Below are positions 21,344 through 42,100 of a stretch of 57,236 nt of DNA, piece after piece. The DNA is from an uncultured Verrucomicrobiota bacterium (GTDB lineage Bacteria > Verrucomicrobiota > Verrucomicrobiia > Limisphaerales > UBA1100). How positions within the stretch are numbered: the stretch's first letter is position 1; each line of letters starts with the position of its first letter. The stretch covers positions 1-57,236 of the forward strand of contig CAZTTU010000004.1 in NCBI GenBank assembly GCA_964616045.1, read 5' to 3'. The position numbers were made by a program, and so were the translations under genes. Below the pieces are notes generated by a model that was not told the DNA's origin, ran no database searches, and worked only from the letters and a program-made list of their open reading frames with translations.

Positions 21344-21369
21344 TTGTTCATCGGTGAACAGTAGTCGCT

Positions 21370-22062: not shown

Positions 22063-22117
22063 GGTTGAAGAAGAATTTTAACCCAAAACTAACAACAACC
22101 AATAGAAGGAACGAACC

Positions 22118-23242: not shown

Positions 23243-23270
23243 ACAACGGGGGAAACCTGAAGACACCGCC

Positions 23271-24627: not shown

Positions 24628-25560
24628 ATGAAAATCCTAATTACTGGCGGCGCAGGCTACCTCGGCTCCATCATGACTCCCTATCTTCTCGGCAAAGGCC
24701 ACGAGGTGACAGTCCTCGACAATTTTCTTTTCCGCCAAAACAGCCTGGCTGACTGTTGCCAATACGACACTTTTGGTATTGTGCGTGGCGACTGTCGTGA
24801 TGCAGATAACATCAAGCCGCTTTTGAAACAGGCAGATGTCATTATTCCGCTCGCTGCACTCGTTGGGGCACCATTGTGTAATGATGACAAACTCGCCGCC
24901 GAAAGCGTGAATCACGGCGCAGTGCAACTGCTCTGCGACCTTGCCAGCACCGATCAACGGATCATCATGCCCATCACCAACAGTGGTTACGGCGTGGGTG
25001 AAGAAGGTAAATTTTGCACCGAGGAAACACCGCTACGTCCCATTACTCTATACGGCCGCACCAAAGTAGCGGCGGAAGAATCGGTGCTTGCGCGCGACAA
25101 CAGCATCAGCTTCCGCCTCGCCACTGTCTTTGGCATGGCTCCACGCATGCGATTGGACTTGTTGGTGAACGATTTTGTATACCGCGCCGTAAATGATCGG
25201 GCTCTTCTGATTTTTGAAGGACATTTTAAACGCAACTACATTCACGTGCGCGACATTGCCCGCGTATTCGAACATGCCATCGACAACTTTGACGCCATGA
25301 AGGGAAATCCATACAACGCCGGTCTTGAGGAAGCCAACCTCTCCAAGCTCGAGTTATGTGCAAAGATCAAGAATCACTTGCCGAATTTTGTCTATGTGGA
25401 AGCCGAAGTGGGTGAAGACCCCGACAAACGGGATTACATTGTTTCCAATCAACGGCTGCTTGAATCAGGTTTTAATACCCAATGGGATCTTGACCGAGGC
25501 ATTCGTGAATTGATCAAGGGGTACACAATCATCCGTAACACGATTTATTCAAACGCATGA
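24628..25560 (+). CDS. NAD-dependent epimerase/dehydratase (extended SDR) acting on a nucleotide sugar
   Basis: MKILITGGAGYLGS Rossmann motif and YGRTK catalytic Y...K. 310 aa. Its stop overlaps the next start (ATGA at 25557-25560). Confidence 0.8.
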   Translation: MKILITGGAGYLGSIMTPYLLGKGHEVTVLDNFLFRQNSLADCCQYDTFGIVRGDCRDADNIKPLLKQADVIIPLAALVGAPLCNDDKLAAESVNHGAVQLLCDLASTDQRIIMPITNSGYGVGEEGKFCTEETPLRPITLYGRTKVAAEESVLARDNSISFRLATVFGMAPRMRLDLLVNDFVYRAVNDRALLIFEGHFKRNYIHVRDIARVFEHAIDNFDAMKGNPYNAGLEEANLSKLELCAKIKNHLPNFVYVEAEVGEDPDKRDYIVSNQRLLESGFNTQWDLDRGIRELIKGYTIIRNTIYSNA

Positions 25561-26288
25561 TGCCCGTCCCACGCGACATCACGGCGTTGATTCTGGCCGG
25601 TGGTTTCGGCACGCGAGTGAAGGATTTACTCGGTGACCTTCCCAAGCCCATGGCACCAGTTAAGGGTCGGCCGTTTGTGGAGTGGATTGTCCGCTGGTTA
25701 AAGGCACAGGACGTACGTGAGGTGATCATCTCCACCGGCTATCGCGCGGAAGTGGTGGAGAATCACTTTGAATCGACGCCCGTTTCAGAAATGAATGTGT
25801 GCTGCATCGCGGAACCGGAGCCGTTGGGCACCGGCGGAGGGCTTGCCTATGCCGCGGCCAAATGTGACACGACGCCGACGGCTTGGCTGGTGTTGAACGG
25901 AGATTCGATCATCTTTGCCAATGTGATGGCGATCACTGAATCGCTCGGGCAAGCCGATGGCGTAATGGTTACCCGCACGGTGCCAGACACTTCGCGTTAC
26001 GGCAGTGTGTGTGCTGATGAATCCGGCCGCATCACGGCCTTCAAGGAGAAACACCCCGGCAGCGGCGAAATAAATGCCGGTGTCTACCTGCTGCGACCCG
26101 AGGTGCTCGCGAATTTTCCGGAAGCTCGACCACTTAGCTTGGAACAGGATATATTTCCAAGTTTGCTGGGTCAACCGGGAGGCGTGAAGGCGCATCGGAT
26201 TGAAACCGCTTTTCTCGACATCGGCACCCCAGAAACTTTGCCCAAAGCAGAGGCGTTTATACGGGAAAATCAGGCTGAATTCGCCTGA
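25557..26288 (+). CDS. hddC: sugar-1-phosphate nucleotidyltransferase, HddC-like (D-glycero-alpha-D-manno-heptose-1-P guanylyltransferase-like)
   Basis: ALILAGGFGTRVKDLLGDLPKPMAPVKGRPFVEWIV NTP-transferase signature. 243 aa. Paired with an HddA-like kinase. Confidence 0.6.
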   Translation: MMPVPRDITALILAGGFGTRVKDLLGDLPKPMAPVKGRPFVEWIVRWLKAQDVREVIISTGYRAEVVENHFESTPVSEMNVCCIAEPEPLGTGGGLAYAAAKCDTTPTAWLVLNGDSIIFANVMAITESLGQADGVMVTRTVPDTSRYGSVCADESGRITAFKEKHPGSGEINAGVYLLRPEVLANFPEARPLSLEQDIFPSLLGQPGGVKAHRIETAFLDIGTPETLPKAEAFIRENQAEFA

Positions 26289-26362
26289 TATTTCACCTAT
26301 TTTAGCCATCAAAAAGGCCTTTATAGGCCGTTTATCCCTAAAAAAAGCCTTTTACCATCAAG

Positions 26363-26378
26363 TGGCACGCCATGTGCT
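26363..26378 (+). promoter_or_regulatory. sigma54-type promoter candidate inside the sugar operon (upstream of the GHMP kinase)
   Basis: TGGCAC-GCCAT-GTGCT lies 69 nt upstream of the ATG at 26447, in a 158-nt intergenic gap. It is 17/18 identical to the candidate upstream of fliO (55322-55339, - strand). Confidence 0.5.
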
Positions 26379-26446
26379 GCTCCCACGACGGGCAGGTTGT
26401 ATTTTCCTGCCTAATTTAGGTCCAAAAACGACGAAACACGCAGTTT

Positions 26447-27538
26447 ATGATTATCACACGTACACCGTTTCGCGTCTCCATGTTTGGAGGCGGTACAGAC
26501 TATCCAGGGTGGTATCGGGAACACGGCGGAGCCGTATTATCCACGACCATCGACAAGTACTGCTACATTACAGCGCGACACCTGCCGCCATTTTTTGAAC
26601 ACCGCTTTCGCGTGGTGTATTCGCAAATCGAGAGTGCCAACACCATAGAAGAAATAGAGCATCCCTCGGTGCGCGCCACGCTGAATTATATGAACCTCAA
26701 TCGCGGGATTGAGATTCATCACGACGGCGACCTGCCTGCCCGCAGCGGTATGGGCAGCAGTTCGTCCTTCACAGTCGGTTTGTTGAACGCCCTGCACGCG
26801 TTGAAGGGCCATATGGCCACTAAGGAACAGTTGGCCAATGAAAGTATTCTGGTTGAGCAGGACATTCTCAAGGAAACGGTCGGCTCACAGGACCAAGTAA
26901 ATGCTGCCTACGGTGGTTTTAACCATATTACATTTCATCAATCCGGTGAAATCTCCGTGCGTCCCGTGATCATTCCTCCGGATCGATTGGAAGAACTCAC
27001 TTCCCACTTGATGCTCTTTTACACAGGCATTAAGCGCACCGCCGACAAGGTGGCCGGCTGCTATGTGCCCTCGCTCGAGGCAAAGCGCCGCCAGTTGCGC
27101 ATCCTGCGTGACATGGTGGAGGAGGCACTCTCCATTCTTTGTGGCCATGGGCCGATCAAAGAGTACGGAGAATTGCTGCACGAAGGATGGCTCGCCAAGC
27201 AGGCCATCAGCGACAAGATTTCCAATGCCGCCATCGCCGAGCTTTATGACGCTGCTAGAAGTGCCGGCGCCATCGGCGGCAAGATCACCGGCGCCGGCGG
27301 TGGTGGATTCATGCTTCTCTTTGTGCCACCACAGCATCAACCCGAAGTGCGCGAGAAACTCAATACGCTTCTCCACGTGCCGTTCAACTTTGAGAAGGCT
27401 GGCAGTCAGGTCATTTTTTATGACCGAGACCAGGATTACTCCGCAGCCGAAGCTGACAACAAATCCCGTAATCTCGCTGAGTTTCGTGAGCTGGACGATG
27501 TGGAAGCGACTGCCAGAGCCGTTGCCAACTTTGTTTAA
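26447..27538 (+). CDS. hddA: GHMP-family sugar kinase, HddA-like (D-glycero-D-manno-heptose-7-P kinase-like)
   Basis: MIITRTPFRVSMFGGGTDYPGWY...LPARSGMGSSSSF (GHMP motif II)...TGAGGGGF (motif III). 363 aa. Confidence 0.65.
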   Translation: MIITRTPFRVSMFGGGTDYPGWYREHGGAVLSTTIDKYCYITARHLPPFFEHRFRVVYSQIESANTIEEIEHPSVRATLNYMNLNRGIEIHHDGDLPARSGMGSSSSFTVGLLNALHALKGHMATKEQLANESILVEQDILKETVGSQDQVNAAYGGFNHITFHQSGEISVRPVIIPPDRLEELTSHLMLFYTGIKRTADKVAGCYVPSLEAKRRQLRILRDMVEEALSILCGHGPIKEYGELLHEGWLAKQAISDKISNAAIAELYDAARSAGAIGGKITGAGGGGFMLLFVPPQHQPEVREKLNTLLHVPFNFEKAGSQVIFYDRDQDYSAAEADNKSRNLAEFRELDDVEATARAVANFV

Positions 27539-27541
27539 ACT

Positions 27542-28213
27542 ATGAGACCCCCATTAATTTGTGAACCCACAGTAGCCGACTCCGCAAAACCAATGGCGAA
27601 CAACTTGCCTCATTGGACCCCGGAAAGGCTGATGGCATTTGAAGAGGATATCGCAGAGGAATTTAACGCCTCCAAAATTAAGGCCCCAGTACATCTCTAT
27701 CACGGCAATGAAAGTAAAATAATCGATGTCTTTAAAGAAGTGCAAGCCGGGGACTGGGTGCTGTGTTCTTGGCGTAGTCATTACCAATGTCTGCTAAAGG
27801 GCGTACCCGCCGAGGACGTAAAGGCAGAGATTATGGATGGCCGCTCCATCACACTTAACTTCCCAAAGTACCGTGTGCTGAGCTCAGCGATTGTGACCGG
27901 GGTACTACCCATTGCCGTTGGCCTCGGCCTTGGTATTCAGCGCGATGGCGGCAGCGACCGGGTATGGTGTTTCCTTGGAGACATGACCTCGGAAACCGGC
28001 TCCGCGCACGAGTGCATCAAATATGTGCGCAACCACCAGCTTCCGGTGCATTTTGTAATCGAGGACAACGGTAAAAGTGTATGCACCGACACGCGAGAAA
28101 CGTGGGGCACCGACACGCTCACTTACGAGAACGTGGATGATCCGTATATCACCTACTACCAATACGAAACCAAATATCCGCACGCTGGCGCTGGTCAGCG
28201 CGTTCAATTCTAA
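27542..28213 (+). CDS. short TPP-dependent E1 alpha-like subunit
   Basis: WRSHYQCLLKG (YR.H-like) and GDMTSETGSAHECIKYVRNHQLPVHFVIEDNGKSV (GDG...E..N.A....LPV.F..ENN TPP-binding motif). Only 223 aa. Confidence 0.65.
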   Translation: MRPPLICEPTVADSAKPMANNLPHWTPERLMAFEEDIAEEFNASKIKAPVHLYHGNESKIIDVFKEVQAGDWVLCSWRSHYQCLLKGVPAEDVKAEIMDGRSITLNFPKYRVLSSAIVTGVLPIAVGLGLGIQRDGGSDRVWCFLGDMTSETGSAHECIKYVRNHQLPVHFVIEDNGKSVCTDTRETWGTDTLTYENVDDPYITYYQYETKYPHAGAGQRVQF

Positions 28214-28225
28214 AGGCATGGTTGC

Positions 28226-28771
28226 ATGAAATTGCTGAAATATTTTGATGAGCTAAAGCGCTCGATGGAATACCTGGCCGAGGATCCGAACGCGGTGTTT
28301 CTCGGCCAAGCTGTCGCCTGCCCGGGCACGGCCATGAGCAATACGCTTAAGGAAATTTCCAATGACCGCAAAGTGGAATTGCCCGTGGATGAGGATATGC
28401 AAATGGGCATGACCAACGGCCTCGCCCTGCATGGCAAACTTCCGGTGAGCATTTTCCCGCGTTGGAACTTCCTGCTACTGGCAACCAATCAGCTGGTGAA
28501 TCACCTCGACAAGTTTAGTGACATGTCTGGTGGCGGATATCAACCCAAGGCCATCATCCGTACCAGCATAGGTTCGGAGCGACCGCTGCACCCTGGACAT
28601 CAGCACATTGGCGATTACACCGAGGCGTATCGTCGCATGTTGCACAGCGTCGAGGTCATACGATTGGAGGAACCAGAGGAAGTTTACCCCGCCTATAAAA
28701 AAGCTCACACCCGCAACGACAACAAGAGCACCATTCTAGTGGAATACGGTGATTATTATAATGAAAAATAG
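28226..28771 (+). CDS. short E1 beta/transketolase pyrimidine-binding-like subunit
   Basis: AVFLGQAVACPGTAMSNTLKEI...ELPVDEDMQMGMTNGLALHGKLPVSIFPRWNFLLLATNQLVNHLDK parallels the N-terminal half of E1 beta. 181 aa, with no C-terminal transketolase domain. Confidence 0.6.
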   Translation: MKLLKYFDELKRSMEYLAEDPNAVFLGQAVACPGTAMSNTLKEISNDRKVELPVDEDMQMGMTNGLALHGKLPVSIFPRWNFLLLATNQLVNHLDKFSDMSGGGYQPKAIIRTSIGSERPLHPGHQHIGDYTEAYRRMLHSVEVIRLEEPEEVYPAYKKAHTRNDNKSTILVEYGDYYNEK

Positions 28772-29966
28772 CGCTCACACCATAGATCCGCAGACTGCCA
28801 TCGGCCCGTGGCCGTTAATGCGGAATAACATCACCCGTGAAGATCTTGATTGCCTAGTGGAATTCCTACAACAGGACGATCCCATTCTCACACAGTCGGC
28901 AAATGTGCGTGAACTCGAGTGTGAATGGAGCCATTGGTTAGGGGTAAAACACAGTGTGTTTGTACATTCCGGGTCAGCCGCCAACCTTGTGACCATGGCA
29001 GCACTTCGCCAACTCAAGGGAGGTGGCGAAGTGATTGTACCCACTCTCACGTGGGTGAGCGACATCGCCTCCGTGTTACACTCTGGCATGAAGCCAGTAT
29101 TTGTGGACATCAACCCGCGCACGCTCGGCATGGACATCAGTCAAGTGCTGGATAAAGTGAACGACAACACCAAGGCTGTCTTCCTTACACACGTGCTCGG
29201 TTACAATGGACTCGACCAACGGTTGCTCGATGAATTGAAGCAACTCAACGTTCCTCTAATCGAGGATTGCTGCGAGGCGCACGGTGCGACATATGTCGAC
29301 CAACGTGTGGGCAGCATGGGTTGGGCTTCGAATTTTTCTTTTTATTACGCGCACCATCTCAGCACCGTTGAGGGAGGCATGGTTTGCACGAATGATGATG
29401 AGCTTTATGAGGCCATCCGCATTTACCGTTCGCACGGAATGGTAAGGGAAGCTGCTGAACAGGAAACGAAAGACCGTTATCAGTCCAAGCATCCGGATTT
29501 GAATCCCGATTTCATCTTCGCCTATCCCGCGTACAACGTGCGTGGCACGGAACTCAACGCAGTGATTGGCCGCAATCAACTCAAGCGCTTGGACGACAAC
29601 AACGCCATTCGGACACGCAACTTAAAGCTCTTTTTGGGCGGACTGGATTCGGCGAAGTACCAAACCGATTTTGCCGTGGAGGGCAGTAGCAATTACGCCT
29701 TTACGCTCATTCTGCGCAGCCCGGATGACACATTACGCGATCGGGTGGAGCACACTTTGCGCGGGTTAAATGTGGAATTTCGCCGTGGAACGGCCGGAGG
29801 TGGCAATCAGCTTCGACAGCCTTATGCCCGAGAGCGGTTTGGGGATGAATATCAGAACTATCCCTTCACCAACCACGTACACTTTTACGGTTGGTATATC
29901 GGGAATTATCCCGACCTCGAACCCGAGCGCATCATCGCACTGACTGAACTGCTAAACACAATATAA
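28749..29966 (+). CDS. DegT/DnrJ/EryC1-family enzyme with Lys->His active site: ColD/E1-type PMP-dependent nucleotide-sugar 3-dehydratase
   Basis: SGSAANLVTMAAL and NFSFYYAHHLSTVEGGMVCTND. The Schiff-base Lys position of aminotransferases (SF...K....GEGG) is His (codons 29352-29357). There is no C-terminal Cys cluster. It overlaps the previous gene by 23 nt. Confidence 0.7.
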   Translation: MIIIMKNSAHTIDPQTAIGPWPLMRNNITREDLDCLVEFLQQDDPILTQSANVRELECEWSHWLGVKHSVFVHSGSAANLVTMAALRQLKGGGEVIVPTLTWVSDIASVLHSGMKPVFVDINPRTLGMDISQVLDKVNDNTKAVFLTHVLGYNGLDQRLLDELKQLNVPLIEDCCEAHGATYVDQRVGSMGWASNFSFYYAHHLSTVEGGMVCTNDDELYEAIRIYRSHGMVREAAEQETKDRYQSKHPDLNPDFIFAYPAYNVRGTELNAVIGRNQLKRLDDNNAIRTRNLKLFLGGLDSAKYQTDFAVEGSSNYAFTLILRSPDDTLRDRVEHTLRGLNVEFRRGTAGGGNQLRQPYARERFGDEYQNYPFTNHVHFYGWYIGNYPDLEPERIIALTELLNTI

Positions 29967-29968
29967 CG

Positions 29969-31528
29969 ATGATTAAACCTTTGAACAAGCAACTCGACGT
30001 GCTGTTTGTCTCGCCTGATTCCTCGACGAAGGCGTATCAGGAATTGGCCAAGAAATACGCAGCCATCGAAACGCCCACGTGGGCGCTTCTACTCGCACAG
30101 GCTTGCCGGAGTAATGGATTTGAATCAGCCATTCTGGATACCGGGGCAGAAAGATTAACTTTAGAACAATCCGTACGACGAATTGATGAAGCCAACCCTC
30201 GATTGGTGTGCCTAACGGTGTATGGTCAGAACCCGAATTCCGGCACCACTAATATGATTGGTGCCATCGCTTTATCCAGAGCACTCAAGGAATCTTATCC
30301 CGAATATAAAATCGCTATCGTAGGGTCCCATGTTAGCGCCCTGCCCCATGAAGTACTGGGGGAGGATTCCATTGATTATGTGCTACTCAATGAGGGCGTG
30401 TATGCGATTCAGAATCTCTTGCGAAGCAATCTGGATGACGAAATAAAAAAAGTAAACGGCATTGGCCACAAATTAAACGGTCAGCCATGGCTAAATCCGC
30501 CTGAGAATGTAGTGCCTCAGGAGCGCATGGATATAGATCTACCCGGGTACGCCTGGGATTTGCTGCCATATGATAAACGACCGTTGGACCTATATCGGGC
30601 GCACTTCTGGCATGCGGAATTCGACCATGCCAAGCGGACACCGTTTGCAGCCATTTACACGTCACTGGGTTGTCGATTTGCCTGCAATTTTTGTATGATC
30701 AATATCGTCAACCGTGATGATAATGAGGATCACATCAACTCCTCACATTCACGTAAAATGCGGTTCTGGTCGCCAAACTTTATTACCAAGGAATTTGAGA
30801 AACTCTCCGATCTCGGCGTTGAAACATTACGCATTTCAGACGAGATGTTCTTCTTGGATAAACGCTATTTTAACCCGTTGTTGAACAATCTCATTGATCG
30901 GAATCTGCCCCTACGCATGTGGGCGTACTCGCGCATCGATACCGTACGGCCAAAGTATCTCGATCTCTTTAAGCGGGCAGGGATCAACTGGCTTGCACTA
31001 GGAGTAGAAGCAGGCAACCAGAAAGTGCGCCGTGAAGTGTCAAAGGGCTCATTCAAGGATATCAATATTCGTGAAGTCACACGCGAAATCCGTGAAGCCG
31101 ACCTGAATATCATTTCGAATTACATCTATGGGTTTCCAGATGACACCCATGAAACTATGCAACAGACACTAGACCTAGCGTTGGAACTCAATACCGAGAT
31201 GGCCAACATGTACCCGTGCCAAGCACTCCCGGGTAGTCCACTGCATCATGAGGCCAGACAAAAAGGATGGTCACTACCCGATAGCTATGAAGGTTATGCC
31301 TTTTTATCCTACGAAAGTCAGCCGCTGCCCACCAAACATCTAAGCGCTGCCGAAGTAATGCGCTTCCGTGACGAAGCGTGGCAGACTTATTTCACCAATC
31401 CCAATTACCTTGACCTTGTTGAAAATAATTTTGGACGAGCCCAGAGATTAAACGTGGAAGATATGAGCAGTGTTCCAATTTCCCGAAAACTGCTGGAGAA
31501 AAAAAACCCGGAGACCTGTTTAACTTGA
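29969..31528 (+). CDS. B12-binding-domain radical SAM enzyme (class B-like)
   Basis: An N-terminal B12-binding-like region (LDVLFVSPDSS...LTVYGQNPNSG), then YTSLGCRFACNFCMI (canonical CX3CX2C at ~30670-30695). 519 aa. Confidence 0.75.
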   Translation: MIKPLNKQLDVLFVSPDSSTKAYQELAKKYAAIETPTWALLLAQACRSNGFESAILDTGAERLTLEQSVRRIDEANPRLVCLTVYGQNPNSGTTNMIGAIALSRALKESYPEYKIAIVGSHVSALPHEVLGEDSIDYVLLNEGVYAIQNLLRSNLDDEIKKVNGIGHKLNGQPWLNPPENVVPQERMDIDLPGYAWDLLPYDKRPLDLYRAHFWHAEFDHAKRTPFAAIYTSLGCRFACNFCMINIVNRDDNEDHINSSHSRKMRFWSPNFITKEFEKLSDLGVETLRISDEMFFLDKRYFNPLLNNLIDRNLPLRMWAYSRIDTVRPKYLDLFKRAGINWLALGVEAGNQKVRREVSKGSFKDINIREVTREIREADLNIISNYIYGFPDDTHETMQQTLDLALELNTEMANMYPCQALPGSPLHHEARQKGWSLPDSYEGYAFLSYESQPLPTKHLSAAEVMRFRDEAWQTYFTNPNYLDLVENNFGRAQRLNVEDMSSVPISRKLLEKKNPETCLT

Positions 31529-31572
31529 TGGCTATGAGCAAAACCCAACATGGACCCTGAACAGCGAGATAA

Positions 31573-34500
31573 TTGATTATGAGCACAAGCAACACTCACA
31601 CATTAGTTGATCCGAAAAAATGGAAGAAACATCTCTTTGGTTTTCCAAGGGATCGATGGATCTCATTCGAAGGACAAAGTTATTGGGTCACCGGTGCGGG
31701 AACAGGCTATGGTCGCTCCATGGCTGTAGCCCTAGCTGCTGCTGGAGCGCGAGTATTCATTACGGGACGCCGACCCGAAAAATTACAGGATACCATTAAA
31801 ACAATAAACTCCCTGGGGATTCCAACCGACAAGTGCCACACGATCGTGGCGGATATTACGAATGGGGAACAGATACAGCAGGCATGTCAGGAGATTGAAA
31901 GTCTCTGCCCAAGTTTAGACGGTATCATTAACAATGCTGCTTTGCCCAATCGCCCGGGGAGCACGAGTCCTTTACAGAATGATCCCATGGACTACTGGAA
32001 AAAGCTCGTTGCAACGAATGTTTCCGGAGCTTGGAATCTAACCCGCACCATTTTCAAACACCTGCTTAAAAGTGGCCGCCCGAGGGTGCTTTTCATCGGA
32101 TCAGGCGCAGGCTGGGCTGCCACTCCAGGCGTAGGCCCTTACAATATCTCTAAAGCCGCGCAAAACGCCTTGAGCCACAGCATGGCACAGGAATATTCGC
32201 ATGATTTTCCATATGAGGATATCCAAATCAACACCTTGGTGGCCGGGGAAGCCCATACAGAAATGAATCAAGGATCAGATGTGAGTCCTTACGTAATTGT
32301 CCGCATGGCCCTATTGCTACTCTCTCAGGAAAAAAACGGTCCCAACGGTTGCTTTTTCTCTGCGGAGGGGGACCACCTGAGTTTTGGCGAAACTGAGCCA
32401 TTCTCAAGACCGTTGATGGAAGTAAACGAGCAGTTCAAAGATCAGGCAACCTCGCGACCTGAAGCGCAACAACCCAAGCAAGCCTGCCTGCATCAATTTC
32501 TCGCTTATGATGAGGGTCCAGAAGACATCAAATATCTCGCTGCGTTTGCCCGCTGCTTTCCAGAACTACATCGCCATCTTTCCTCTAGCACTAACAGCAA
32601 ATTAGCCTTTTACGGTGCCGGCAAACTCACAAAATACTTTTTGGATCGGCATCCAGAAACAGTTAGCTTGGTGGAATGCATAATTGATGACGACCCTGCA
32701 AAGCAAAAAAAACAAATCCACGGAATTCCAATCATCAGCTTGGAAGATTTGCCGGAAAGCGTGGAAAATGTATTTCTTGCCAGCTCAAGGGCAGAGGGCA
32801 TGTTTGCAATGCAAAAAGCACTAGATCGAAGGCGTGAAAAAACGAATTACTTTGATTTTTCCGTGGCAGGGCAATTGATCCCAGGGGTCATTCCGGTTAG
32901 AGCATGGCGCAATTACGAGAATAACATATATCCAATCGAAATCCCCAAGGTGGAGTTTGAAAAGAACAAGGATATGTTGCTGCTCGAAATGCCACCACGA
33001 TATATGCCCTTCATGCCTTATGGAATCGGATGCGTTCACAACATTCTTAAAGGAACCGGGCTCAACTTCCAGACCATGGACCTGAATATCATTTGGTACC
33101 ACCGCTATCATATGGCTAGGCTACTAGATGGAGTTGAGAATGCCGCCTGGCTCAAAGGTGACCAATTGGATCCTTGGGATTCAACTGTAGCTGAAACTTG
33201 GGACAATTCTGAAATCCCCACCGAATACCAAATCAATGAAGATGAAGCTCCGAAGAGTAGAAATCTCGCGATTGAGTATTTCAGGGATCAAGTTGATGAG
33301 GTGATTGATGAAATAGTGAAAGCCAAGCCAAGGATGCTTGGTTTTTCCTTAAATCTGAACAACACCTGCATGGTGCACGAAGTGATCAAGGGAGTGAAAA
33401 AGCGCCTTCCTGATGTACTGATACTTGTAGGAGGATACGCCTTCTACAGTCACCAATTATCATTGGCTAGAAGCTCGGATCTTTACGACTACGTGATAGT
33501 CGGAGAGGCAGAATATAGCCTGCCTCCGTTGATCAAGAAACTTAAAGAGAGCTTCAAAACAGGAGATTATCCCAAGGATTTGCCGGGAATTCTTTCAAAG
33601 TTTGATACACCGGATCGGAAGTTTGGCAAAATGCCTAACGTGTCGGATCTCAGCAACCAACCCTTTCCTCGATACGAATGGTTGCCATACAAATTTTATG
33701 CGACCTATGACAACAACCACACTGTGCCCACCTGCACCAGTCGGGGTTGCTCCTGGAGTCGATGCAAATTTTGCTGTGAAACGGCCAAATACTATTATCG
33801 TGACCCTGTAGAATTTGTGGATGAACTGGAATGGCACGTAAATCAAGGAGCTTTCACGTTTAATCTCTTTGAAAGCGACATCAACGGAAACCACGAAAAT
33901 CTTCAGAAAATAATGAAGGAAATTGTCAAGCGAGGATTGAAGGTAAATCTGTATGGACAATTCCGCATTGACCGACGCAACACCCCTGAATTTTTCCGGG
34001 ATCTAAAGGCTGCTGGTTTTAGCATGGTGCGCTTCGGCGTAGACGGATGGTGCGACAACGTTCTGAAGAATCAGTTAAAGAGTGCCAACATGAAGATCAC
34101 TGAGCGAAACCTGAAAGATGCCACCGAGGCTGGTCTACTCTGTAATGTTAACATGGTTTTGGGTGTGCCCGGCGAAACTGAGGAAGACATAGAGGAGAGC
34201 TATCAAAATATTGTACGTTTGAAACCCTACATCAATATGTTTGAAACCCTTAACATGCTGCGAGTCGCCGCGGGAAGCCAATACTATGAAGATCCGGATA
34301 AATATAAAATCCGATTTCGAGGGGATCGCGATGAAATTTATCGTAAGAACAAGACTATGCTACCGGAGAATCTCTGGTATAGTGAAGATCCCTATATCGA
34401 TGATGCTGTACGCGTACAACGATTCCGAAAAATTGTCCGTGGTTGCCACGAAGGAGGGGTGACACTTGGCGATTACATCAAGTGGTCGGTCGTTCAGGAA

Positions 34501-35256
34501 GTCAACCGAATAGAAGGAGGAGACGAAACGGACTTTGAGAAGGTAATCTATGCAGAACCTGCCAATAGCCAAAGTAGTGAGCATGTCGCAGCACCCTCCA
34601 CTATCAATAATTTTGGACTGCAGGGAGAAGAACTGGAAGCCACTGCCGAGGAATCCTCAACCCCAGTTGAGCAAGCCAACCCAGAGACAGAATCGGCGGA
34701 GGTATTCAAACAAGAAACCGGAAAAAATTCGTCATGCGGAAAGAATGATTGCTGCCAAGATGAGCCTGAAAAACATGAATTAAATGAGAGCATCATTACT
34801 GATGAAAACCAAACCAAATGCGAGGTCGAATTGGAAGTAATGGCCCAACGCGAGAATGGCATATGGTACGCTAACGGTGATAAGGATGCCTTCTCGGGCA
34901 AGGCACTTAGTTACTATGCTCCCAACCGCAAACAGACAGAATTTAATTTCAAGGACGGCGTCATGGACGGGCCACACCTAACTTGGCACAAAAATGGGGC
35001 AACTGAAATTCAAACCACTTATATCAATGGAGTAGAAAATGGCTGCCATACGGAGTGGTATGAGAACAATCAGATAAAGTGGGAGTCAATTTATGAAGAT
35101 GGGCAAATTGTTTCACTAAAGGGATGGAGTGAGAATGGTGAGCGCAAAGACCTGCAGGATTGGACTCTTGATGGTAAACCCAAGCCAACACGCGCTTTGG
35201 CTAACAAGAACACAGGTACGCTCGAACTATTAAGCCACACAGAAACCTCTAATTAA
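31573..35256 (+). CDS. 1,227-aa fusion: SDR oxidoreductase + Rossmann-like domain + B12-type radical SAM domain + acidic Cys-containing linker + MORN/YwqK-like repeats
   Basis: SDR: VTGAGTGYGRSMA...NNAAL...YNISKAA (31680-32370). Rossmann-like: KLAFYGAGKLTKYF...IIDDDPAKQ (32598-32860). rSAM: RGCSWSRCKFCCE (33748-33777), with B12-like VLILVGGY upstream. Linker: SSCGKNDCCQDE. MORN-like: GIWYANGDKDAFSGKALSYYAPNRKQTEFNFKDGVMDGPHLTWHKNGATEIQTTYINGVENGCHTEWYENNQIKWESIYEDGQI (34855-35150). Confidence 0.75.
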   Translation: MIMSTSNTHTLVDPKKWKKHLFGFPRDRWISFEGQSYWVTGAGTGYGRSMAVALAAAGARVFITGRRPEKLQDTIKTINSLGIPTDKCHTIVADITNGEQIQQACQEIESLCPSLDGIINNAALPNRPGSTSPLQNDPMDYWKKLVATNVSGAWNLTRTIFKHLLKSGRPRVLFIGSGAGWAATPGVGPYNISKAAQNALSHSMAQEYSHDFPYEDIQINTLVAGEAHTEMNQGSDVSPYVIVRMALLLLSQEKNGPNGCFFSAEGDHLSFGETEPFSRPLMEVNEQFKDQATSRPEAQQPKQACLHQFLAYDEGPEDIKYLAAFARCFPELHRHLSSSTNSKLAFYGAGKLTKYFLDRHPETVSLVECIIDDDPAKQKKQIHGIPIISLEDLPESVENVFLASSRAEGMFAMQKALDRRREKTNYFDFSVAGQLIPGVIPVRAWRNYENNIYPIEIPKVEFEKNKDMLLLEMPPRYMPFMPYGIGCVHNILKGTGLNFQTMDLNIIWYHRYHMARLLDGVENAAWLKGDQLDPWDSTVAETWDNSEIPTEYQINEDEAPKSRNLAIEYFRDQVDEVIDEIVKAKPRMLGFSLNLNNTCMVHEVIKGVKKRLPDVLILVGGYAFYSHQLSLARSSDLYDYVIVGEAEYSLPPLIKKLKESFKTGDYPKDLPGILSKFDTPDRKFGKMPNVSDLSNQPFPRYEWLPYKFYATYDNNHTVPTCTSRGCSWSRCKFCCETAKYYYRDPVEFVDELEWHVNQGAFTFNLFESDINGNHENLQKIMKEIVKRGLKVNLYGQFRIDRRNTPEFFRDLKAAGFSMVRFGVDGWCDNVLKNQLKSANMKITERNLKDATEAGLLCNVNMVLGVPGETEEDIEESYQNIVRLKPYINMFETLNMLRVAAGSQYYEDPDKYKIRFRGDRDEIYRKNKTMLPENLWYSEDPYIDDAVRVQRFRKIVRGCHEGGVTLGDYIKWSVVQEVNRIEGGDETDFEKVIYAEPANSQSSEHVAAPSTINNFGLQGEELEATAEESSTPVEQANPETESAEVFKQETGKNSSCGKNDCCQDEPEKHELNESIITDENQTKCEVELEVMAQRENGIWYANGDKDAFSGKALSYYAPNRKQTEFNFKDGVMDGPHLTWHKNGATEIQTTYINGVENGCHTEWYENNQIKWESIYEDGQIVSLKGWSENGERKDLQDWTLDGKPKPTRALANKNTGTLELLSHTETSN

Positions 35257-35317
35257 TCTACTGCCTCATGATCTTCGTCCGATTAAAAGCATTTCAATGC
35301 AATATCTTTTTTGCTGA

Positions 35318-36019
35318 ATGAGCCGCAAACTCGTCAACGGTGAATTGAAATTCGATACGGTTGCCCGGCGTCTCGATGACTGGGTGGATCATCATCCTTG
35401 GGCCCGTGGCGGCTGGGTGCCCGCGGATCAGGAATGGCATGAGTTTATGGCCAGCCATCGCTATCGCCCGAAGGACAATGACGGCGTGACGCCAATTCAG
35501 CAGGTGCGGTCAGAGATTATTGGCTTGGTCGAGGTGTTGCTGGATTCGGTCCCGCGCAGGACCGCGGTCGAGATCGGCATGGGAACTTGCGGTGGATCAC
35601 ATTTTCTTTGGTCGTTGATGTTCGATCGGGTCATCACCATTGACGCCGATCGCAAACCCATCGAGCGGTTCATCGACGAGCATTCGCCGCACGACGATCA
35701 AAGCACATTCATTTTTGGCAAATCCTATGATTCGGAAATTGTCAATGAAGCCGGGCGCATTATCCGGAGCTGCAATTTTTTGCTGATTGATGGTGACCAC
35801 ACGCGCGACGCTGTGGAGGCAGATTGGCGGATGTATTCCCACTTGGTTGAACCTGGGGGCATCATCGCCTTCCATGACACCCTGATGGAAGTGCCCGGCG
35901 AACTGGAAGTGGCCAGTTTCGTAAATGACCTCGAAACAGGCAATTTAACCGGCACACCTCTCCCCATCCAGCACATCCGATATTCCAAATTTGTCGGCAT
36001 TTCTTATTATCAAGTTTGA
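35318..36019 (+). CDS. class I SAM-dependent methyltransferase (CmcI/cephalosporin-hydroxylase-like family)
   Basis: AVEIGMGTCGGSHFLWS (SAM motif I-like) ... VITIDAD ... LLIDGDHTRDAVEADWRMYSHLVEPGGIIAFHD. 233 aa. Confidence 0.65.
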   Translation: MSRKLVNGELKFDTVARRLDDWVDHHPWARGGWVPADQEWHEFMASHRYRPKDNDGVTPIQQVRSEIIGLVEVLLDSVPRRTAVEIGMGTCGGSHFLWSLMFDRVITIDADRKPIERFIDEHSPHDDQSTFIFGKSYDSEIVNEAGRIIRSCNFLLIDGDHTRDAVEADWRMYSHLVEPGGIIAFHDTLMEVPGELEVASFVNDLETGNLTGTPLPIQHIRYSKFVGISYYQV

Positions 36020-36128: not shown

Positions 36129-36144
36129 TGGCCCAATAGTTGCT
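36129..36144 (+). promoter_or_regulatory. sigma54-type promoter candidate upstream of the giant TPR-glycosyltransferase gene
   Basis: TGGCCC-AATAG-TTGCT (GG/GC spacing canonical, perfect TTGCT -12 element) at the end of the 120-nt gap after the methyltransferase. It overlaps the TTG start at 36140 given in the ORF track. Confidence 0.4.
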
Positions 36145-36157
36145 TTGTTTGGAGGAC

Positions 36158-39100
36158 ATGGATGTGCAAAATCCAATTCCGGACAGGGAATTTGAGGAAT
36201 ATGCCCCCCCGGCTATCGCGCTCGGCAAGCCGTCTGAATGGTTTACCTCTGGAAATTTCTGTGGCTCGGCCCGCTCCCCGGACGTTGAGGGCTGGCAGTC
36301 CTCCGCCGCACTCGGCTTGATTGGTAATGCCCCCCTCGCCATCGCCGGACTGGAAAAAACCGATTCGCCCGAGGCCCGGTTTTACCTAGGGGCGGCACTG
36401 TGGATTGAGGGCAACGAAACCGAAGCAACCGATGTGCTGGCGCGAGTGAATCTACCCGAGGCACGGCGGCTGTTGGCGTTGATACAAAAACCTCGTATTA
36501 ACGTTCTCGCCCAGACGGTTTGGGAAGACGCGGCGTTTGAAGATGAAAAATTTCATGTACACCGCACCGGCATCAAGCGTACACGGCTCAATGAGGAGAC
36601 TGTGCTCGAAGCGGACAACCGCGTTCTGGATGAACCGTTCCTAAGCATACGCAAGGGTTTGGATTTCAAGCCTGACTTTTATTTTGCCCACATGATTGAG
36701 TGGCAATACCTACCCTATGATCTAACTGAACTTAGCTGCCCCACTTTTGGCGCAACCTCTGACTTGGACCTGCACATCCAAAATAATGCACCGTGGCTTT
36801 CGGCGTTTGATGAGGTAATCACCGTGGGGCCCGAGGAATGGGCAAAAGCGCGCGCCTTGCGGCCGGGCCCTACCTGCATATTTCCAAAGCTCTTCGGCAT
36901 CAACCTGGATCATCAATTGAAACTGGATGACCGCAAGCGTGACGTGGATGTTTTCATCTCGGGCACCATGATCAGCCCCTATCACCCGGACAAGGCGCAG
37001 TTGCTCCAGCAGTTGCTCAGTGATGGGTCGCTGAACATTCGATACATGAACGGGTTTCTGCCACCCTGGAGTTATGTGTCTGAGATGATGCGCTCAAAGG
37101 TGTCCTTCACCTACGTGCGCCATCCGGGAAGTATGCCTTCGCGCGGGGTGGAAGCGTTGGCGGCCGGCTGCGCGGTGCTCACGCAGACAGGCAGTGCGTT
37201 GGGGTTGTATGTAGCCGAAAATGAGGGCGTGTTTACTTACGAACCTAATCAACTGGCCGGACGCATCCGGGAGTTGGCCGGCAACTGGGACACCATTGCC
37301 CCTCAAGCACGACGAGGCGCGGAAATTATGCGCAGGGAATTTACTGGCAGTAGATGCATTTCGCAGTTCCTGCGATTTCTCACTGTGCGCACCGCGATCA
37401 CGGGAAAGAACCGGCCTCGCGTGGCTCCACCCGTTCCGCACCAGAAACGGGTGATCACCAAGCGTGGTTGGTTGTACCCGGGCACGGTGAATTATTGCCT
37501 GTTGAACCACACGATGGAGGAATCCCGGCAGCGCGAGGCAAAGCAACCACAGTCGCATCATTCAATCGATGCAGCACGCGAACTGGATTTGTACCTGGCC
37601 TGCGATTTGCCACAAGTGAGCAAAAAAATTCATGGTTATCAAAATATGACCCAAGATGCGAAGCGAGCGGGCGACGGCGCCGCAGTTAAAAAATTGGCTG
37701 ATGAAATGCGGGCAAACGCCAAGCGCATTTACGAGCATGGGATCAGAAAACATCCTAACTCACTGGTGCTTCGGTTCAACAGCATCCGGCACGATCTGCA
37801 TTTGGGATCACCGGGACAGGTGGCCGAGGCGCTGGACCAGATTCAGGTCATTCTGGATCAATCTACATTGCACGGCACCATCGATCCGCAAGAGGATATC
37901 ATGCCATGGGATTATTTTGGATCACTGTTCAATTACCGAGGTTACCTCGACACACTAACAGTGGGCTTGACCTCGGGCACAGTAGATACGGAGAAACTGG
38001 CTCAAATGATCCTCGCTTCACTTGCGCATTATCTGGGGCAATACACCGCGCAGGTGGCCCCGCTGGAACGAGCGGTACGATGGGACCCGGAATTTGGGCA
38101 TTACCACTTTTCGTTGGCGCGCGCACTACTGCTGCGCAATGAACCAGGCGATGACCGACGAGCTGGAACGCTGCTAGAGGGATTATTTGAAAAGGGCATT
38201 TTGATCGAGCCGACCTTTCGTTTGTTGGCCAAACTCCGTGAATACCGAGGGGTGGAAGTGGCGAAGTGGGAAGATTATGAGCAGCGCTTTAGGCGACTGC
38301 AGCGAATGATCTTTGCCTCCGGCCAGGCCTATGAGCAGTTTGAAGATGACACGTTGATCCTGCCCCCAGATGTGAAAAATCTGCCGCTTTTGGCTGATCC
38401 TTTTGTCGATAAAAATCTGCCGATGGCGGGAACTGAGTCTTCAACCCATTTGGCGAGTCCTGCGGGGCGGCGTGACACACCAAAAAAAGTGCTACTCATC
38501 TCCTTTGAGTGCGGCAACTGGGAAAATGCGAAGGCGTGGTCATACAACGGATTTTATGCGCTGGAGGAGGCGCTGGGAGCGCAAGGCGTAAGACATCTCA
38601 CTCTGCCAACAATCGCGGGAATGCCCTCCAGTCATCGCGGTTCTTGGCTGCGGCAGGCCGAACTATTCACCAAGGGCGAAAAATTTGACCAAGCATGGAT
38701 TTGGGTCACTCACAACGACTACGAGCCGGAGTTTTTGAATTGGTTCGAAAAAATCGCGCCTGTGCGGGTTGGTCTGATTATGGAATCGCTGGAGCACACG
38801 GCGGAGGAATCAAAGCGCTTTCCAAACCTTGCCGTACGCCGTAAAAAAGTGCTGGATCACTTGAGGCACTGCACCCATGCGCTAACGTTTGATGAAAAGG
38901 ATGCGGAAACTCTACCGATAGACTTACCCATACATGCGTTGTGGTGCCCGCCGGTGGTTGGCTGGCGCGATGTTTGCGCGCAAATCGATCTGCCCGCACC
39001 CGGACCGGCCTGTTTCCAAGGCACCCTGTATAACCCGGAGCGACAAGCGTTTTTTGAGTTGGCTGAATTGCGTAAATTATTGCACCAGCCCGAATTGCCC

Positions 39101-42100
39101 GAAGCAACTTCGGAATTGCCTTCAGATTTTGACAAGACACAGGCTCTCTCCATCAAGCAATTGATGCGGTACGACGTGGCCGCGTTGGAGTGGCTAGATG
39201 AATACCTCACGCAACTGCGGCGCATTCGGCGGCAGCTGAATGACTTATGGCAAAAAGGGCTCCGCCAGAGTTACTTGCAAGTAAATCTGCCATCCATTTT
39301 TAAATCCTATGCTGGACGCGTGGTGGAAAGTATGGCTGCGGGCAGACCAATCATTTCTTGGGAACCTCCTAGAGAACGAACACGGGCATTATTCACTCCT
39401 GGCAAGGAAATCCTTTGGTTCAATCGTGACAAGCCGGAGCAGTTGGCCGAACAAATACAATGGCTACAAAAAAACCCACACAAAGCTGCTGCAATCGCTG
39501 AAAACGCTCGAGCCAAGGTTCTGCGTTATCACACCGCTGAAATCCGTGTAAGGCAAATCTTGGACTGGATAGAACACGGATTGGAGCCAGATTTTGGAGA
39601 AAATATAAATTCATCGACTGAAACAGAACAAACCGAATTGGATATGAATACAAACACCCTACCACCGGAAACCCTTGAAGAGGCTTTAGACCAGGCTGAA
39701 GTTTGTAACAACCACGAGGATCACGAGGGAGCCGTCCAGGCGTTGGAAAACGCTCTCGAACTCGGAGACCGCCACCCTGTAATCCTGCGCGCCTTGGCCA
39801 CTCAACAGTTTCTCCAATCCCGTTACGACAAGGCCCGAGTACTGTTCAAGGAGTTTACTACCGTCTGCCCGGATGATGCAACGGGCCATGTACAGTACGG
39901 ATTGGCCGCCTTTCACGACAAAGACGAGGAAATGTGCATCTCTGCCTTACAACAAGCCCTTGTTCTGGAACCGGATCACCTTGAGGCACTCAAATTATTG
40001 GCCGATTTAGATGTGCGTGCCGAACACTACGCCGAGGCGAGGCGTAAATATGATCAAGTCGCCGAACAAGGCGGAATTACAGCAGAAGCCTTACAGGCTT
40101 TGGCATTTTGTCAGTTCAAAACTGGAGATATAGAACGCTCCCAAGATACATACAAACAGTTGCTGGCCTTCAATCCCAAGGATGAGTTGGCTACTCACAA
40201 CTTGAGTGTTGTCGAAGCCACTTTGCGGGACAACCCACCTGCTTCCACCAAAATGACATCCAATTTGGAAACAGAATCCGTGAATGAGTTCCTGGAGCAG
40301 GCTGATTTCTTTCAACAAGCCGGCAACTCGGAAGCGGCTTTGGCTGAACTGCAACGGGCGGTGGAGCTAGAGCCCAAGAATCCACGGCTAATTGAGGCCT
40401 TGGGATCAGCACTGTTTCAACAGGAACGATTTGAGGAAGCACGCAGTCACTTCCGCCACTTCATTGAGTTACAACCCCGCAATGCCATGGCGTACACCCG
40501 CTTGGCGATGACCAGCTACGCCACAGATCGTTATGATGAATTTGAATGTGCCTTGGGACTGGCCATGGAAATTGATCCGGAATCGCCGGAAATGCTCCAT
40601 TTCATGGGAAAGGTGAACCTGGATCAACAGCGTCACTACGATGCCGGGCGGATCTTTGGTAAACTGGTGGAACTGGAACCCGAGAATGTACAAAATCTGT
40701 TGGCTCTGGGCATGTGCCTCCATCAGGGCGGCCAAACGGAAGCCGCGCAGGATACTTACAAGCGCACCCTGCAGCTGGATCCTGAAAATCAAATTGCCCA
40801 AACCAATCTCATTGCGATCGAACAGAATGCCTTACCTGCCGAGACGAAAACCGATATTCATGAGTCAACAACTCAATCACAATCGCTGGACACCTCGTTG
40901 GAGAAAGCACAAGCGGCCTTGGAACAGGGCGAATCGCAACGCGCGATAGCGTTATTGGAAAACGTGCTGGCGCAGCACCCCAGTGAAGTAGCCTTACTCA
41001 GGGCTTTGGGGAACTTGTACTTCAGTGAGGGGCAGCTGAAGGAATCGATGGAATACTTCCACCGAATCTCCGATTTGCTACCCGGGGAAATCGACGCACA
41101 ATTGCAGGCAGCCACTACGGCGTTGCTCGCCGAAAATTACGAAACCTTTGAAATCTATATGGAACGCTCCCTCGAGTTGGAGCCGGAAAATCCGCATGGG
41201 TTAAAGCTGTTGGCAACAGCGAATTTCAAGGCACAAAAATACAAGGAGGCCGCTGATCTTTATTGCCAAGCTTTAACCGGCTTGACGGAGGATATCGAGA
41301 TCGTTCTCGCGCTGGGCGTTTGTTTTCACAATCTGGAAGATAAGGACACTGCTGAATCATGCTTCAAACGAGCCTTGGAGATTGATCCGTATAACCCCGT
41401 GGCCGCCGAAAACTTAAAGTCACTCGCAAACACAACCGCTCCCCCTGAGACGACAATCCAATCGAACAGTCATATCAGCGCCACCGTGCTGAATGATATC
41501 TGCAGCCATGTCCAAAATAAAGCAACCGATGAATCTGCAAATTTGCCCACCGCAGCATTGGTTGGAAATCTGGATCACGCGCAGGAACTGCTTAGCCAGG
41601 GGCTGCATATCGAATCCTGGAATGAAACCCTTAAAGCAATCGAACAACGCCCTTTCCATCCGGAGGCTTACTTGCACCTAGCCGAAGTGGCATTGGATTG
41701 CGATGACACGCTTCAGGCAGCGAAATGTTTAGTAACAATAAGCTCTCTCACCCCAAGTTGGGAGATTCCAAAGCAAGCCCTCGATACGATCAACAAACAG
41801 CCCCACACGCAATCAACTGAAATCAATTGGCCCACATTACCCCAGCCCGCAGCAAGTCCGCGCCTGAGTGTTTGCTTCATTACCAAGGACGAAGAGCGAT
41901 TCCTAGACGACGCTCTGCAATCTGTAAGAAACATTGCCCATCAAATCGTTGTGGTAGATACCGGTTCCACTGATCATACGGTGGCAATTGCTGAAAAACA
42001 TGGCGCTGAAGTCCATCACTTTGAATGGTGCGATGATTTCTCAGCTGCACGAAACTTTGCACTGGAACACGCCCGAGGAGACTGGGTGCTCGTGCTGGAC

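Follow-up and report, generated by a model that had tools for sequence, protein, structure and literature searches.

Comparison with described systems

OxsB and AlsB, the radical S-adenosylmethionine (SAM) enzymes of ring contraction in the oxetanocin A and albucidin pathways (PDB 5UL2-5UL4), provide one of the nearest described models for the protein considered here. OxsB uses a CX4CX2C cysteine motif and was solved with a [4Fe-4S] cluster, SAM and cobalamin (PMC9204698), and its product is an aldehyde requiring a dehydrogenase (PMC13331322). The present analysis concerns gene 2 (31579..35256, + strand), a reading frame of 1,225 residues from its ATG, in a 57,236-nucleotide stretch of an uncultured Verrucomicrobiota bacterium (contig CAZTTU010000004.1, assembly GCA_964616045.1), the whole of which is referred to as the window. 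The predicted product is bifunctional, joining a short-chain dehydrogenase/reductase (SDR) to a cobalamin-type radical SAM unit and ending in a C-terminal repeat tail. A separate radical SAM gene, gene 1, lies directly upstream.

Gene 2 and OxsB share the CX4CX2C loop (TSRGCDYSRCTFC in OxsB and TSRGCSWSRCKFC in gene 2), a cobalamin Rossmann domain placed before the radical SAM domain, an extra domain in the N-terminal position and a helical C-terminal region. An asparagine of gene 2, N594, aligned with Asn186 in the lower-axial loop of OxsB, and a nucleotide-linked sugar, the type of substrate used by OxsB, is proposed as the substrate of gene 2. Unlike the OxsB system, the gene 2 locus had no OxsA-like HD phosphohydrolase and no third radical SAM gene among the large open reading frames (ORFs) scanned, its context is that of a surface glycan rather than a nucleoside antibiotic, and the reductase is fused in cis. 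Gene 2 may work like OxsB but is no orthologue of it.

A two-component logic like that envisaged for gene 2 is found in aminoglycoside C3′ deoxygenation, in which AprD4 (PDB 6FD2), a diol dehydratase of the radical SAM type, works with the NADPH reductase AprD3 (PMC5461906). The radical SAM protein makes a keto-sugar, which the reductase then reduces; unlike the two activities of gene 2, AprD4 and AprD3 are separate proteins, and their substrate is a pseudodisaccharide. The name given to AprD4 is that of a radical SAM diol dehydratase and not of a cobalamin enzyme; it has the fold discussed here and a canonical cluster motif and is not known to use cobalamin.

The class-1 cobalamin radical SAM methyltransferases TsrM, TokK, CysS and MgmA gave the best overall fold matches to gene 2 (E values from 3e-17 to 1e-12) and have the Gly-Gly and Gly-Glu (GE) cobalamin-tail motifs in common with it. 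They differ from gene 2 in that TsrM has a CX3CX2C motif, as aligned here, and TokK does not show the CX4CX2C departure of OxsB. The N-terminal domain of OxsB is absent from TsrM and TokK, the residue under the cobalt is Trp76 in TokK (hydrophobic) and Arg69 in TsrM, and no fused reductase is described in reviews for any of the four.

The gene order around gene 2 resembles that of the flagellin glycosylation islands of Campylobacter, Pseudomonas and Geobacillus, in which, as here, sugar-nucleotide and glycosyltransferase genes lie between flagellin and flagellar genes. Islands of this kind are known to make nonulosonic acids or viosamine-type sugars, and the nucleotide-sugar cassette described below also lies apart from flagellar genes, in Spirulina and Sulfuricaulis. 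A literature search, conducted largely without subscription journals, turned up neither a description of cobalamin-type radical SAM enzymes in flagellin glycosylation nor a relevant paper on the cassette, and no published account of the CX4CX2C subfamily or of its fusion with an SDR.

A radical SAM unit with a conserved CX4CX2C motif

The cluster motif of gene 2, C726-SWSR-C731-KF-C734 (33748..33774, +), has a CX4CX2C spacing and conforms to the family signature RGCxW[SG][RK]CxFC. Residues C726, W728, C731, F733, C734 and E736 were invariant in 16/16 fusion proteins and in 88/88 wider relatives, and CxWxxCxFC was present in all 129 relatives retrieved with the radical SAM core, so that the cysteine triad was conserved in every homologue set. 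A back-translated pattern combining GCxW[SG][RK]CxFC with an SDR pattern detected at least 600 stretches in species-representative genomes, 548 of which were confirmed as relatives, including members of Nitrospira, Nitrospina, Omnitrophota, Planctomycetota and Deltaproteobacteria; most of the 80 kept align over the radical SAM region. An exhaustive search of cluster representatives returned 239 proteins at E<=1e-30, a number that rose to 6,006 at E<=1e-10. Because of the unbroken conservation among retrieved proteins and the hundreds of genome relatives, the CX4CX2C motif is, as judged by alignment, the hallmark of a populated subfamily and not an oddity of gene 2.

The first-pass annotation of the window had presented this motif as non-canonical, and that description stands together with its conservation. 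The implied novelty does not, the motif being already documented in OxsB, whose TSRGCDYSRCTFC aligned residue for residue onto the family sequence asRGCkWsrCrFC in a profile search with the radical SAM core. Ligation of a cluster by the longer loop has a structural precedent, since OxsB was crystallized with [4Fe-4S], cobalamin and SAM bound.

The radical SAM unit begins with a Rossmann-like domain (32470..32907, +; residues 300-445) that was modelled with a predicted local distance difference test score (pLDDT) of ∼95 and contains the segment FYGAGKLTKYF...IIDDDP at about residues 345-378. This domain had initially been interpreted as a second Rossmann segment in a fusion of four parts. A phmmer search identified about 70 relatives that have no SDR and carry the domain at their own N terminus; the domain, therefore, belongs to the radical SAM unit, which in its ancestral form runs from this N-domain through the cobalamin and radical SAM domains to the helical C terminus, an arrangement like that of four-domain OxsB. 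The motifs and domain order of the four-part description were recovered, but the parts are not four independent ones, as the second Rossmann segment is the usual N-domain of this radical SAM subfamily. Other resemblances of the N-domain, to Methyltransf_14, the NeuD N-domain and Rex, were weak (E 0.006-0.07).

A cobalamin-binding-type Rossmann domain (32974..33564, +) follows and lies directly N-terminal of the radical SAM barrel. Residues 573-651 matched Pfam B12-binding (PF02310) at 37.7 bits against a cut-off of 32.1, and a lineage-specific insertion was present at about residues 545-565. The cobalamin tail of such enzymes is held by a Gly-Gly motif on β4 and a Gly-Glu motif at the start of α5 (PMC9204698). 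Both of these markers of B12-type radical SAM proteins were found in gene 2, with G620 and G621 invariant in 88/88 relatives, G644 present in 74/88 and E645 in 83/88. Radical methylases have Trp or Leu at the lower-axial position (PMC12931638); in the gene 2 alignment, the corresponding column, that of N594, was always polar and never hydrophobic (N in 45 sequences, H in 26, Q in 10, S in 5, and R and D in 1 each; 88 sequences).

The radical SAM core is a partial triosephosphate isomerase (TIM) barrel (33724..34272, +), matched by Pfam Radical_SAM (PF04055) at residues 722-878 with 48.5 bits against a cut-off of 29.5. The region that follows (34273..34554, +) is helical and contains a conserved LWYSEDPYID motif, with helices at model residues 645-694 (pLDDT >90); it is probably a cap or a substrate-binding element.

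An AlphaFold model of residues 300-1010, built on 88 sequences, had a pLDDT of 92.5 and a predicted template modelling score (pTM) of 0.91. The 17 top Foldseek matches in the PDB were B12-type radical SAM structures, AprD4 among them, and ranked ahead of MiaB. E values were 3e-17 for TsrM, 3e-15 for TokK, 9e-15 for CysS, 1e-14 for AprD4, 1.5e-14 for OxsB and 1e-12 for MgmA. The OxsB match, over 611-616 columns with a query template modelling score (TMq) of 0.49, was the longest among those to TokK, CysS, AprD4, OxsB and MgmA.

For a profile search against solved proteins, a core-only alignment was rebuilt, as SDR matches had swamped the full-length gene 2 profile. Only five matches were obtained: TsrM (2.4e-15), whose match was limited to the radical SAM region; OxsB (1.1e-14), colinear across the cobalamin and radical SAM domains and with the CX4CX2C motifs aligned; and AprD4, TokK and MgmA at ∼1e-5. 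Among NCBIfam models, the best match was TIGR03975, a radical SAM C-methyltransferase for maturation of peptides that are made ribosomally and modified post-translationally (RiPPs), at 102-105 bits against a cut-off of 281.85, and further weak matches of the core were to PhpK and HpnR, all family scores falling far below the cut-offs. The AprD4 model, NF033070, scored 19.7 bits on the core against a cut-off of 500. On these comparisons, the core of gene 2 is assigned to an uncharacterized subfamily of class-1 cobalamin-type radical SAM proteins, with OxsB and TsrM as its closest solved relatives.

Relatives of 850-1,400 residues contained the radical SAM core and further unidentified C-terminal extensions (9917-13396 in locus L012, 9908-13351 in L020, and others), some of them with PF22674. 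In a second group, of 1,000-2,300 residues, the core was matched in three to seven separate stretches at ∼27% identity, which suggests proteins made of several tandem radical SAM units.

The SDR domain and its pairing with the radical SAM unit

The SDR domain (31579..32427, +) is complete and classical, as the first-pass annotation had stated. Pfam adh_short matched residues 39-234 at 129.5 bits, and the characteristic motifs TGAGTGYG and YNISK were located at residues 40-47 and 190-194. In an alignment of 16 fusion proteins, the cofactor motif T40-G47 (TGxxxGxG) and the N149/S177/Y190/K194 tetrad were invariant. Arginines R66 and R67, which follow β2, were also invariant and, under the standard SDR classification, indicate a predicted preference for NADP(H). 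A 35-residue N-terminal extension of the domain, which includes W17, H20 and W29, was conserved as well.

The occurrence of the SDR was examined across genome loci. This SDR, at 40% identity or more (42-53%), was present in 8 of 13 species-level loci whose core was at least 35% identical to that of gene 2, and of the five loci without it three are contigs that are short or cut off. It was not found in any of 67 more distant relatives. The two activities are not always fused: in a Nitrospira locus (L012) and a deltaproteobacterial locus (L020), the SDR is a separate ORF of 290-291 residues that shares 4 bases with the radical SAM gene at its stop codon, the latter gene encoding 1,147-1,159 residues. 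In another locus (L092), the SDR forms the C-terminal half of a sulfotransferase directly upstream of the N-domain/radical SAM gene. The occurrence of the SDR as a front fusion, as a separate gene behind, or as part of a neighbour points to a dedicated partner of the radical SAM unit, the two activities probably acting on consecutive steps.

The architecture, which was at first not recognized, is thus rare but not unique. A search of 5.8 billion protein clusters detected 15 clusters that combine the SDR with B12-binding and radical SAM domains within one protein, at 40-91% identity, and a later phmmer search added four, which brings the homologue clusters that retain the fusion to at least 19 (P0001-15, P0163, P0230, P0259 and P0273); unfused SDR/radical SAM pairs occur in Nitrospira and Deltaproteobacteria. 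The closest match among GTDB species representatives was 43% identical to gene 2.

Integrity and start of gene 2

An assembly or frameshift error, a possibility already raised by the first-pass annotation, could join separate genes into one long frame, or the frame could be a decaying pseudogene. The great length of the ORF, the TTG codon at its listed start and the low-complexity linker within it would fit such an origin. The recorded sources of the stretch were seawater or Tara mesopelagic samples. It was present in seawater metagenomes, and Logan contigs from two seawater runs (X1 and X2) covered positions 29900-32148, 32119-34324 and 34365-35400, spanning all of the domain junctions, with 0 differences. 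Both runs left a 40-base gap in the unitigs at 34325-34364, which also fits an artefact; the only contigs to cross it came from related strains (X3). In such strains the indels preserved the frame: an 18-nucleotide deletion at 34719 lies in the linker, and an insertion at 34460 is compensated by a deletion at 34464. More decisive than contig coverage, the fusion is conserved in the at least 19 clusters listed above, which come from unrelated samples, with catalytic residues invariant in every domain across the 16-sequence alignment, and is therefore genuine. The confident AlphaFold model also argues against an artefact, which is effectively refuted.

The listed ORF starts at TTG 31573 (31573..35256, +) and encodes 1,227 residues. 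The start is more likely to be the ATG at 31579, because the copy of the protein on record at NCBI (P0392, on a contig equal in length to the window) has 1,225 residues, P0001 begins with the equivalent Met, and a G>A change at 31575 in related strains destroys the TTG.

The linker and repeat tail

The radical SAM unit is followed by an acidic low-complexity linker (34555..34821, +; residues 995-1083) that is variable and predicted to be disordered (pLDDT <50). The CGKNDCC sequence reported for it earlier is present, at about residues 1059-1065, though unconserved. A metal site at CGKNDCC was considered and rejected, as P0001 and P0002 lack the sequence, the region around it is predicted to be disordered, and the 18-nucleotide in-frame deletion at 34719 is close by, which shows that the linker tolerates indels.

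The remaining tail (34822..35157, +; residues 1084-1195) consists of repeats with a period of ∼23 residues (WYANG, TWHKNG, EWYENN and GWSENG), which were modelled as consecutive β-hairpins with a pLDDT of 70-83 and a mean for the tail model of 60.5. The repeats had been labelled MORN/YwqK-like. Their presence was confirmed, but the label is weak: MORN_2 (PF07661) reached 15.4-20.9 bits, short of its gathering score (29.6), and no YwqK model matched among NCBIfam families. Foldseek gave no significant structural match for the tail (best E 0.017); its weak matches included SET7/9 and axonemal radial-spoke structures, which are MORN-repeat proteins. The repeat tail was confined to the clade of the window (P0001-3 and one fragment). 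Five related clusters (P0006-9 and P0011) have C-terminal tetratricopeptide repeats (TPRs) instead, in P0010 a block of TPRs is inserted behind the SDR, and many relatives have neither type of module. The tail is, then, a clade-specific set of β-hairpin repeats with a weak likeness to MORN_2, and no support was obtained for the earlier suggestion that it tethers the enzyme to the flagellar export machinery. The hairpin repeats, like the TPRs of relatives, may act as an exchangeable protein-docking module. Taken from end to end, gene 2 is read from its domain matches as an SDR, a radical SAM unit made up of the N-domain, the cobalamin and radical SAM domains and the helical cap, and a lineage-specific tail.

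Gene 1 and the genomic context

Gene 1 (29969..31528, +) encodes 519 residues from an ATG, with a B12-binding domain at residues 29-150 (53.5 bits) and a Radical_SAM domain at residues 230-404 (63.8 bits against 29.5). Its cluster motif, C235-RFA-C239-NF-C242 (30671..30694, +), is a canonical CX3CX2C that is kept across the family, in agreement with the annotated pair of consecutive B12-type radical SAM genes. The cobalamin-tail markers of gene 1 deviate, reading VGSH and NEG. Recent duplication as the origin of genes 1 and 2 was rejected, gene 1 being only 21% identical to the core of gene 2.

The gene 1 family is large, with 7,967 of 8,000 scored candidates reaching E<=1e-20. Identity was ∼70% across Verrucomicrobia, Cyanobacteria and Gammaproteobacteria and 81% to a Verrucomicrobiales homologue, and the family travels with the same nucleotide-sugar cassette across genomes. 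Scores against named families did not reach a cut-off (HpnJ, 121.1 of 577.6 bits; BchE, 88.6 of 481.35; AprD4 [NF033070], 65.5 of 500), and AprD4 was the best solved sequence match (5.6e-12). On this comparison, gene 1 is considered a member of a very large, highly conserved, uncharacterized family that anchors the sugar cassette, and would act in the conserved core pathway as a separate B12-type radical SAM enzyme with a canonical motif.

The cassette (24628..29966, +) is conserved across loci and lies upstream of gene 1. It encodes, in order, an epimerase/dehydratase, an HddC/ManC-like nucleotidyltransferase, an HddA-like GHMP kinase, thiamine-diphosphate E1 alpha and beta proteins, and a DegT/RfbH-like pyridoxal phosphate (PLP) enzyme. 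The E1 proteins are short, with 223 residues for alpha (27542-28213, +) and 181 for beta (28226-28771, +), the latter without a Transketolase_C domain. These short sizes are kept in L088 and L089 (81-90% identity) and in a Spirulina locus, L090 (214 and 178 residues); Nitrospira loci L012 and L014 have E1 homologues that are 68-72% identical, and L003, L006, L007 and L091 have full-length versions. As the short sizes are conserved across phyla, an interpretation of the E1 genes as pseudogenes was rejected, and the pair looks like a conserved minimal split enzyme.

Upstream of the cassette is a flavin adenine dinucleotide (FAD) oxidase gene (23112-24605, +), whose product scored 532 bits with the NCBIfam model for L-2-hydroxyglutarate oxidase, above the cut-off of 299. 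The listed start overlaps the flagellin gene; translation probably begins near 23247 instead, which would yield 452 residues as in L088. The oxidase recurs in the sugar cassette (L088, L091, L009 and L019), which suggests a role in the pathway different from that of L-2-hydroxyglutarate oxidase. The flagellin gene itself (22118..23242, +) is directly upstream of the island and is preceded by a 1.3-kb stretch without a large ORF (20814-22117).

Downstream of gene 2, a methyltransferase of the CmcI/rhamnosyl-O-methyltransferase type (35318..36019, +) is followed by a 2,446-residue protein with many TPRs and GT1-like and GT2 glycosyltransferase domains (36140..43480, +). Giant glycosyltransferase/TPR genes also follow the radical SAM module in L003, L006, L007 and L092, and the 2,446-residue protein is a candidate for transfer of the island sugar to flagellin or the surface. 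A 346-residue ORF on the opposite strand (43492-44532, -) had no Pfam match. The flagellar genes flhF, flhA, flhB, fliR, fliP and fliM are located further downstream. The layout of the island, in which sugar and glycosyltransferase genes adjoin flagellin and flagellar genes, is that of flagellin glycosylation islands. No Rfam family, including the cobalamin riboswitch, reached its gathering score anywhere in the window. At the far upstream end of the window, a giant ORF (53-19672, +; 6,539 residues) with Laminin_G_3, immunoglobulin, NHL and PQQ/β-propeller repeats looks like a giant surface adhesin.

Relatives of gene 2 were accompanied by the same cassette in L003 (adjoining FlgK), L006, L007, L012, L014 and L018. 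Two loci with cassette proteins 88-90% identical to those of the window were informative in another way. In L088, FliW, CsrA and flagellin genes precede the same cassette, but in both L088 and L089 a phosphoenolpyruvate (PEP)-utilizing enzyme replaces gene 2 after gene 1, and the CmcI-like methyltransferase of the window is absent. The L089 module additionally has a glutamine amidotransferase, a nucleotidyltransferase, an adenosine phosphosulfate (APS) kinase/sulfotransferase and a methyltransferase. Because such closely related cassettes are followed by different modules, gene 2 and the CmcI-like methyltransferase appear to occupy a variable, swappable tailoring slot, and strains that are close relatives appear to exchange tailoring modules.

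Proposed function and alternatives

Gene 2 probably encodes a bifunctional enzyme that tailors a nucleotide sugar in a pathway for surface or flagellar glycans. In this locus the pathway is probably flagellin glycosylation, the gene context pointing to flagellin as the target. Given the AprD4/AprD3 and OxsB/dehydrogenase precedents, the radical step is read as a carbonyl-forming rearrangement or dehydration that is followed by reduction by the SDR. We assign this reading a probability of about 45%, its substrate, reaction type and cobalamin use being deduced from likeness and context. In such a pathway, the kinase, nucleotidyltransferase, epimerase/dehydratase, PLP enzyme, thiamine-diphosphate enzyme and gene 1 would build a modified nucleoside diphosphate (NDP)-sugar. 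The radical SAM module of gene 2 would then take a hydrogen atom from the NDP-sugar and drive a rearrangement or dehydration to an aldehyde or ketone, resembling the ring contraction of OxsB or the diol dehydration of AprD4, and the fused SDR would immediately reduce the carbonyl with NADPH. The CmcI-like methyltransferase and the giant TPR-glycosyltransferase would finish and transfer the sugar. The coupling of the SDR to the radical SAM unit through a keto intermediate, as suggested in the first-pass annotation, is thus plausible and is backed by the conserved pairing of the two activities as well as by the precedents, while the chemistry is deduced.

Several points weigh against this reading. 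There is no characterized member of the subfamily. Identity to OxsB is only 12-13%, and TsrM scores slightly better. The N-domains of gene 2 and OxsB did not align in sequence, the profile alignment starting at OxsB residue 153-164, and homology of the two was not detectable by sequence, the likeness being one of position alone. Most characterized cobalamin radical SAM enzymes are methyltransferases, and the best NCBIfam model is that of a RiPP C-methyltransferase (105 bits against a cut-off of 282). The rule of a polar lower-axial residue is based on a few structures and one alignment column, and the fold alone would be no proof of cobalamin use, AprD4 being among the fold matches. Some relatives of gene 2 occur in other sugar contexts, with an ABC transporter and methyltransferases in L001/L002 and with NeuB and a formyltransferase in L005.

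The points concerning methyltransferases lend weight to a different reaction, in which gene 2 would perform a methylcobalamin-dependent radical C-methylation of an unactivated carbon of an NDP-keto-sugar, with ketoreduction by the SDR before or after, in the manner of the class B methylases GenK, GenD1, Fom3 and TokK. C-methylation followed by 4-ketoreduction is the standard logic of branched deoxysugars. The characterized members of class 1 mostly methylate, TokK, CysS and MgmA were among the top structural matches, and the best-scoring families (TIGR03975, PhpK and HpnR) are C- or P-methyltransferases, although all of these family scores were far below the cut-offs. The conserved cobalamin-binding markers would fit methylation, as would the invariant W728 in the Cys loop, as Trp215 in the Cys loop of TokK (PMC9204698) lies between cobalamin and cluster (PMC12931638). 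The lower-axial column, however, was never hydrophobic in the 88 sequences, unlike that of radical methylases, and the CX4CX2C motif and extra N-domain match OxsB, which does not methylate. A tight link to a reductase that has been re-invented repeatedly is also explained more directly by a radical step that produces a carbonyl. Methylation is, on this evidence, the less likely of the two reactions. The shared motif, the extra N-domain and the polar lower-axial position in 88/88 sequences are the reason for leaning toward an OxsB-like, non-methylating reaction. Its narrowest form, in which the CX4CX2C/SDR subfamily would rearrange a nucleotide sugar's carbon skeleton through ring contraction or branching and reduce the aldehyde in cis, is doubtful and is put forward only tentatively.

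Action on a protein or peptide, such as flagellin recruited by the repeat or TPR module, in the way of RiPP C-methylases or epimerases, is improbable. The flagellin gene is close by, β-hairpin repeats and TPRs are protein-binding types, and TIGR03975 is a RiPP maturation model, but its score of 105 bits falls well short of 282, and a protein-binding tail is missing from many relatives. Such a substrate would be hard to reconcile with the SDR partner and the conserved nucleotide-sugar cassette, and no precursor-peptide gene was seen, small ORFs not having been searched for. The probability left after carbonyl formation, methylation, a protein substrate and an artefact is assigned to something else.

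Significance

Gene 2 is not a new kind of enzyme but an uncharacterized class-1 subfamily member with a known OxsB-type loop, joined in this lineage to the SDR that usually accompanies it and to an exchangeable repeat tail. Only a small number of reaction types are assigned to cobalamin-dependent radical SAM enzymes, and those that do not methylate (OxsB, BchE and ThnL) are the least understood. The OxsB-type loop now gains a second and much larger home, with 239 proteins at E<=1e-30 and more than 500 genome relatives. The conserved reductase partner offers a clue to the reaction, and the cassette could supply a substrate for reconstitution. Gene 2 is a good lead for enzymology and of moderate interest overall. 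The two relatives that are 88-90% identical and carry different modules in the same slot offer a lead on glycan variation between strains. The system is a testable entry to new sugar chemistry and to the glycans of environmentally abundant, uncultured bacteria. If the narrower reading, of an OxsB-like skeletal rearrangement with reduction in cis, is correct, it would represent a new class of sugar-modifying reaction that serves the surface and flagellar glycans of marine Verrucomicrobia-like bacteria, of Nitrospira and of Deltaproteobacteria, among others.

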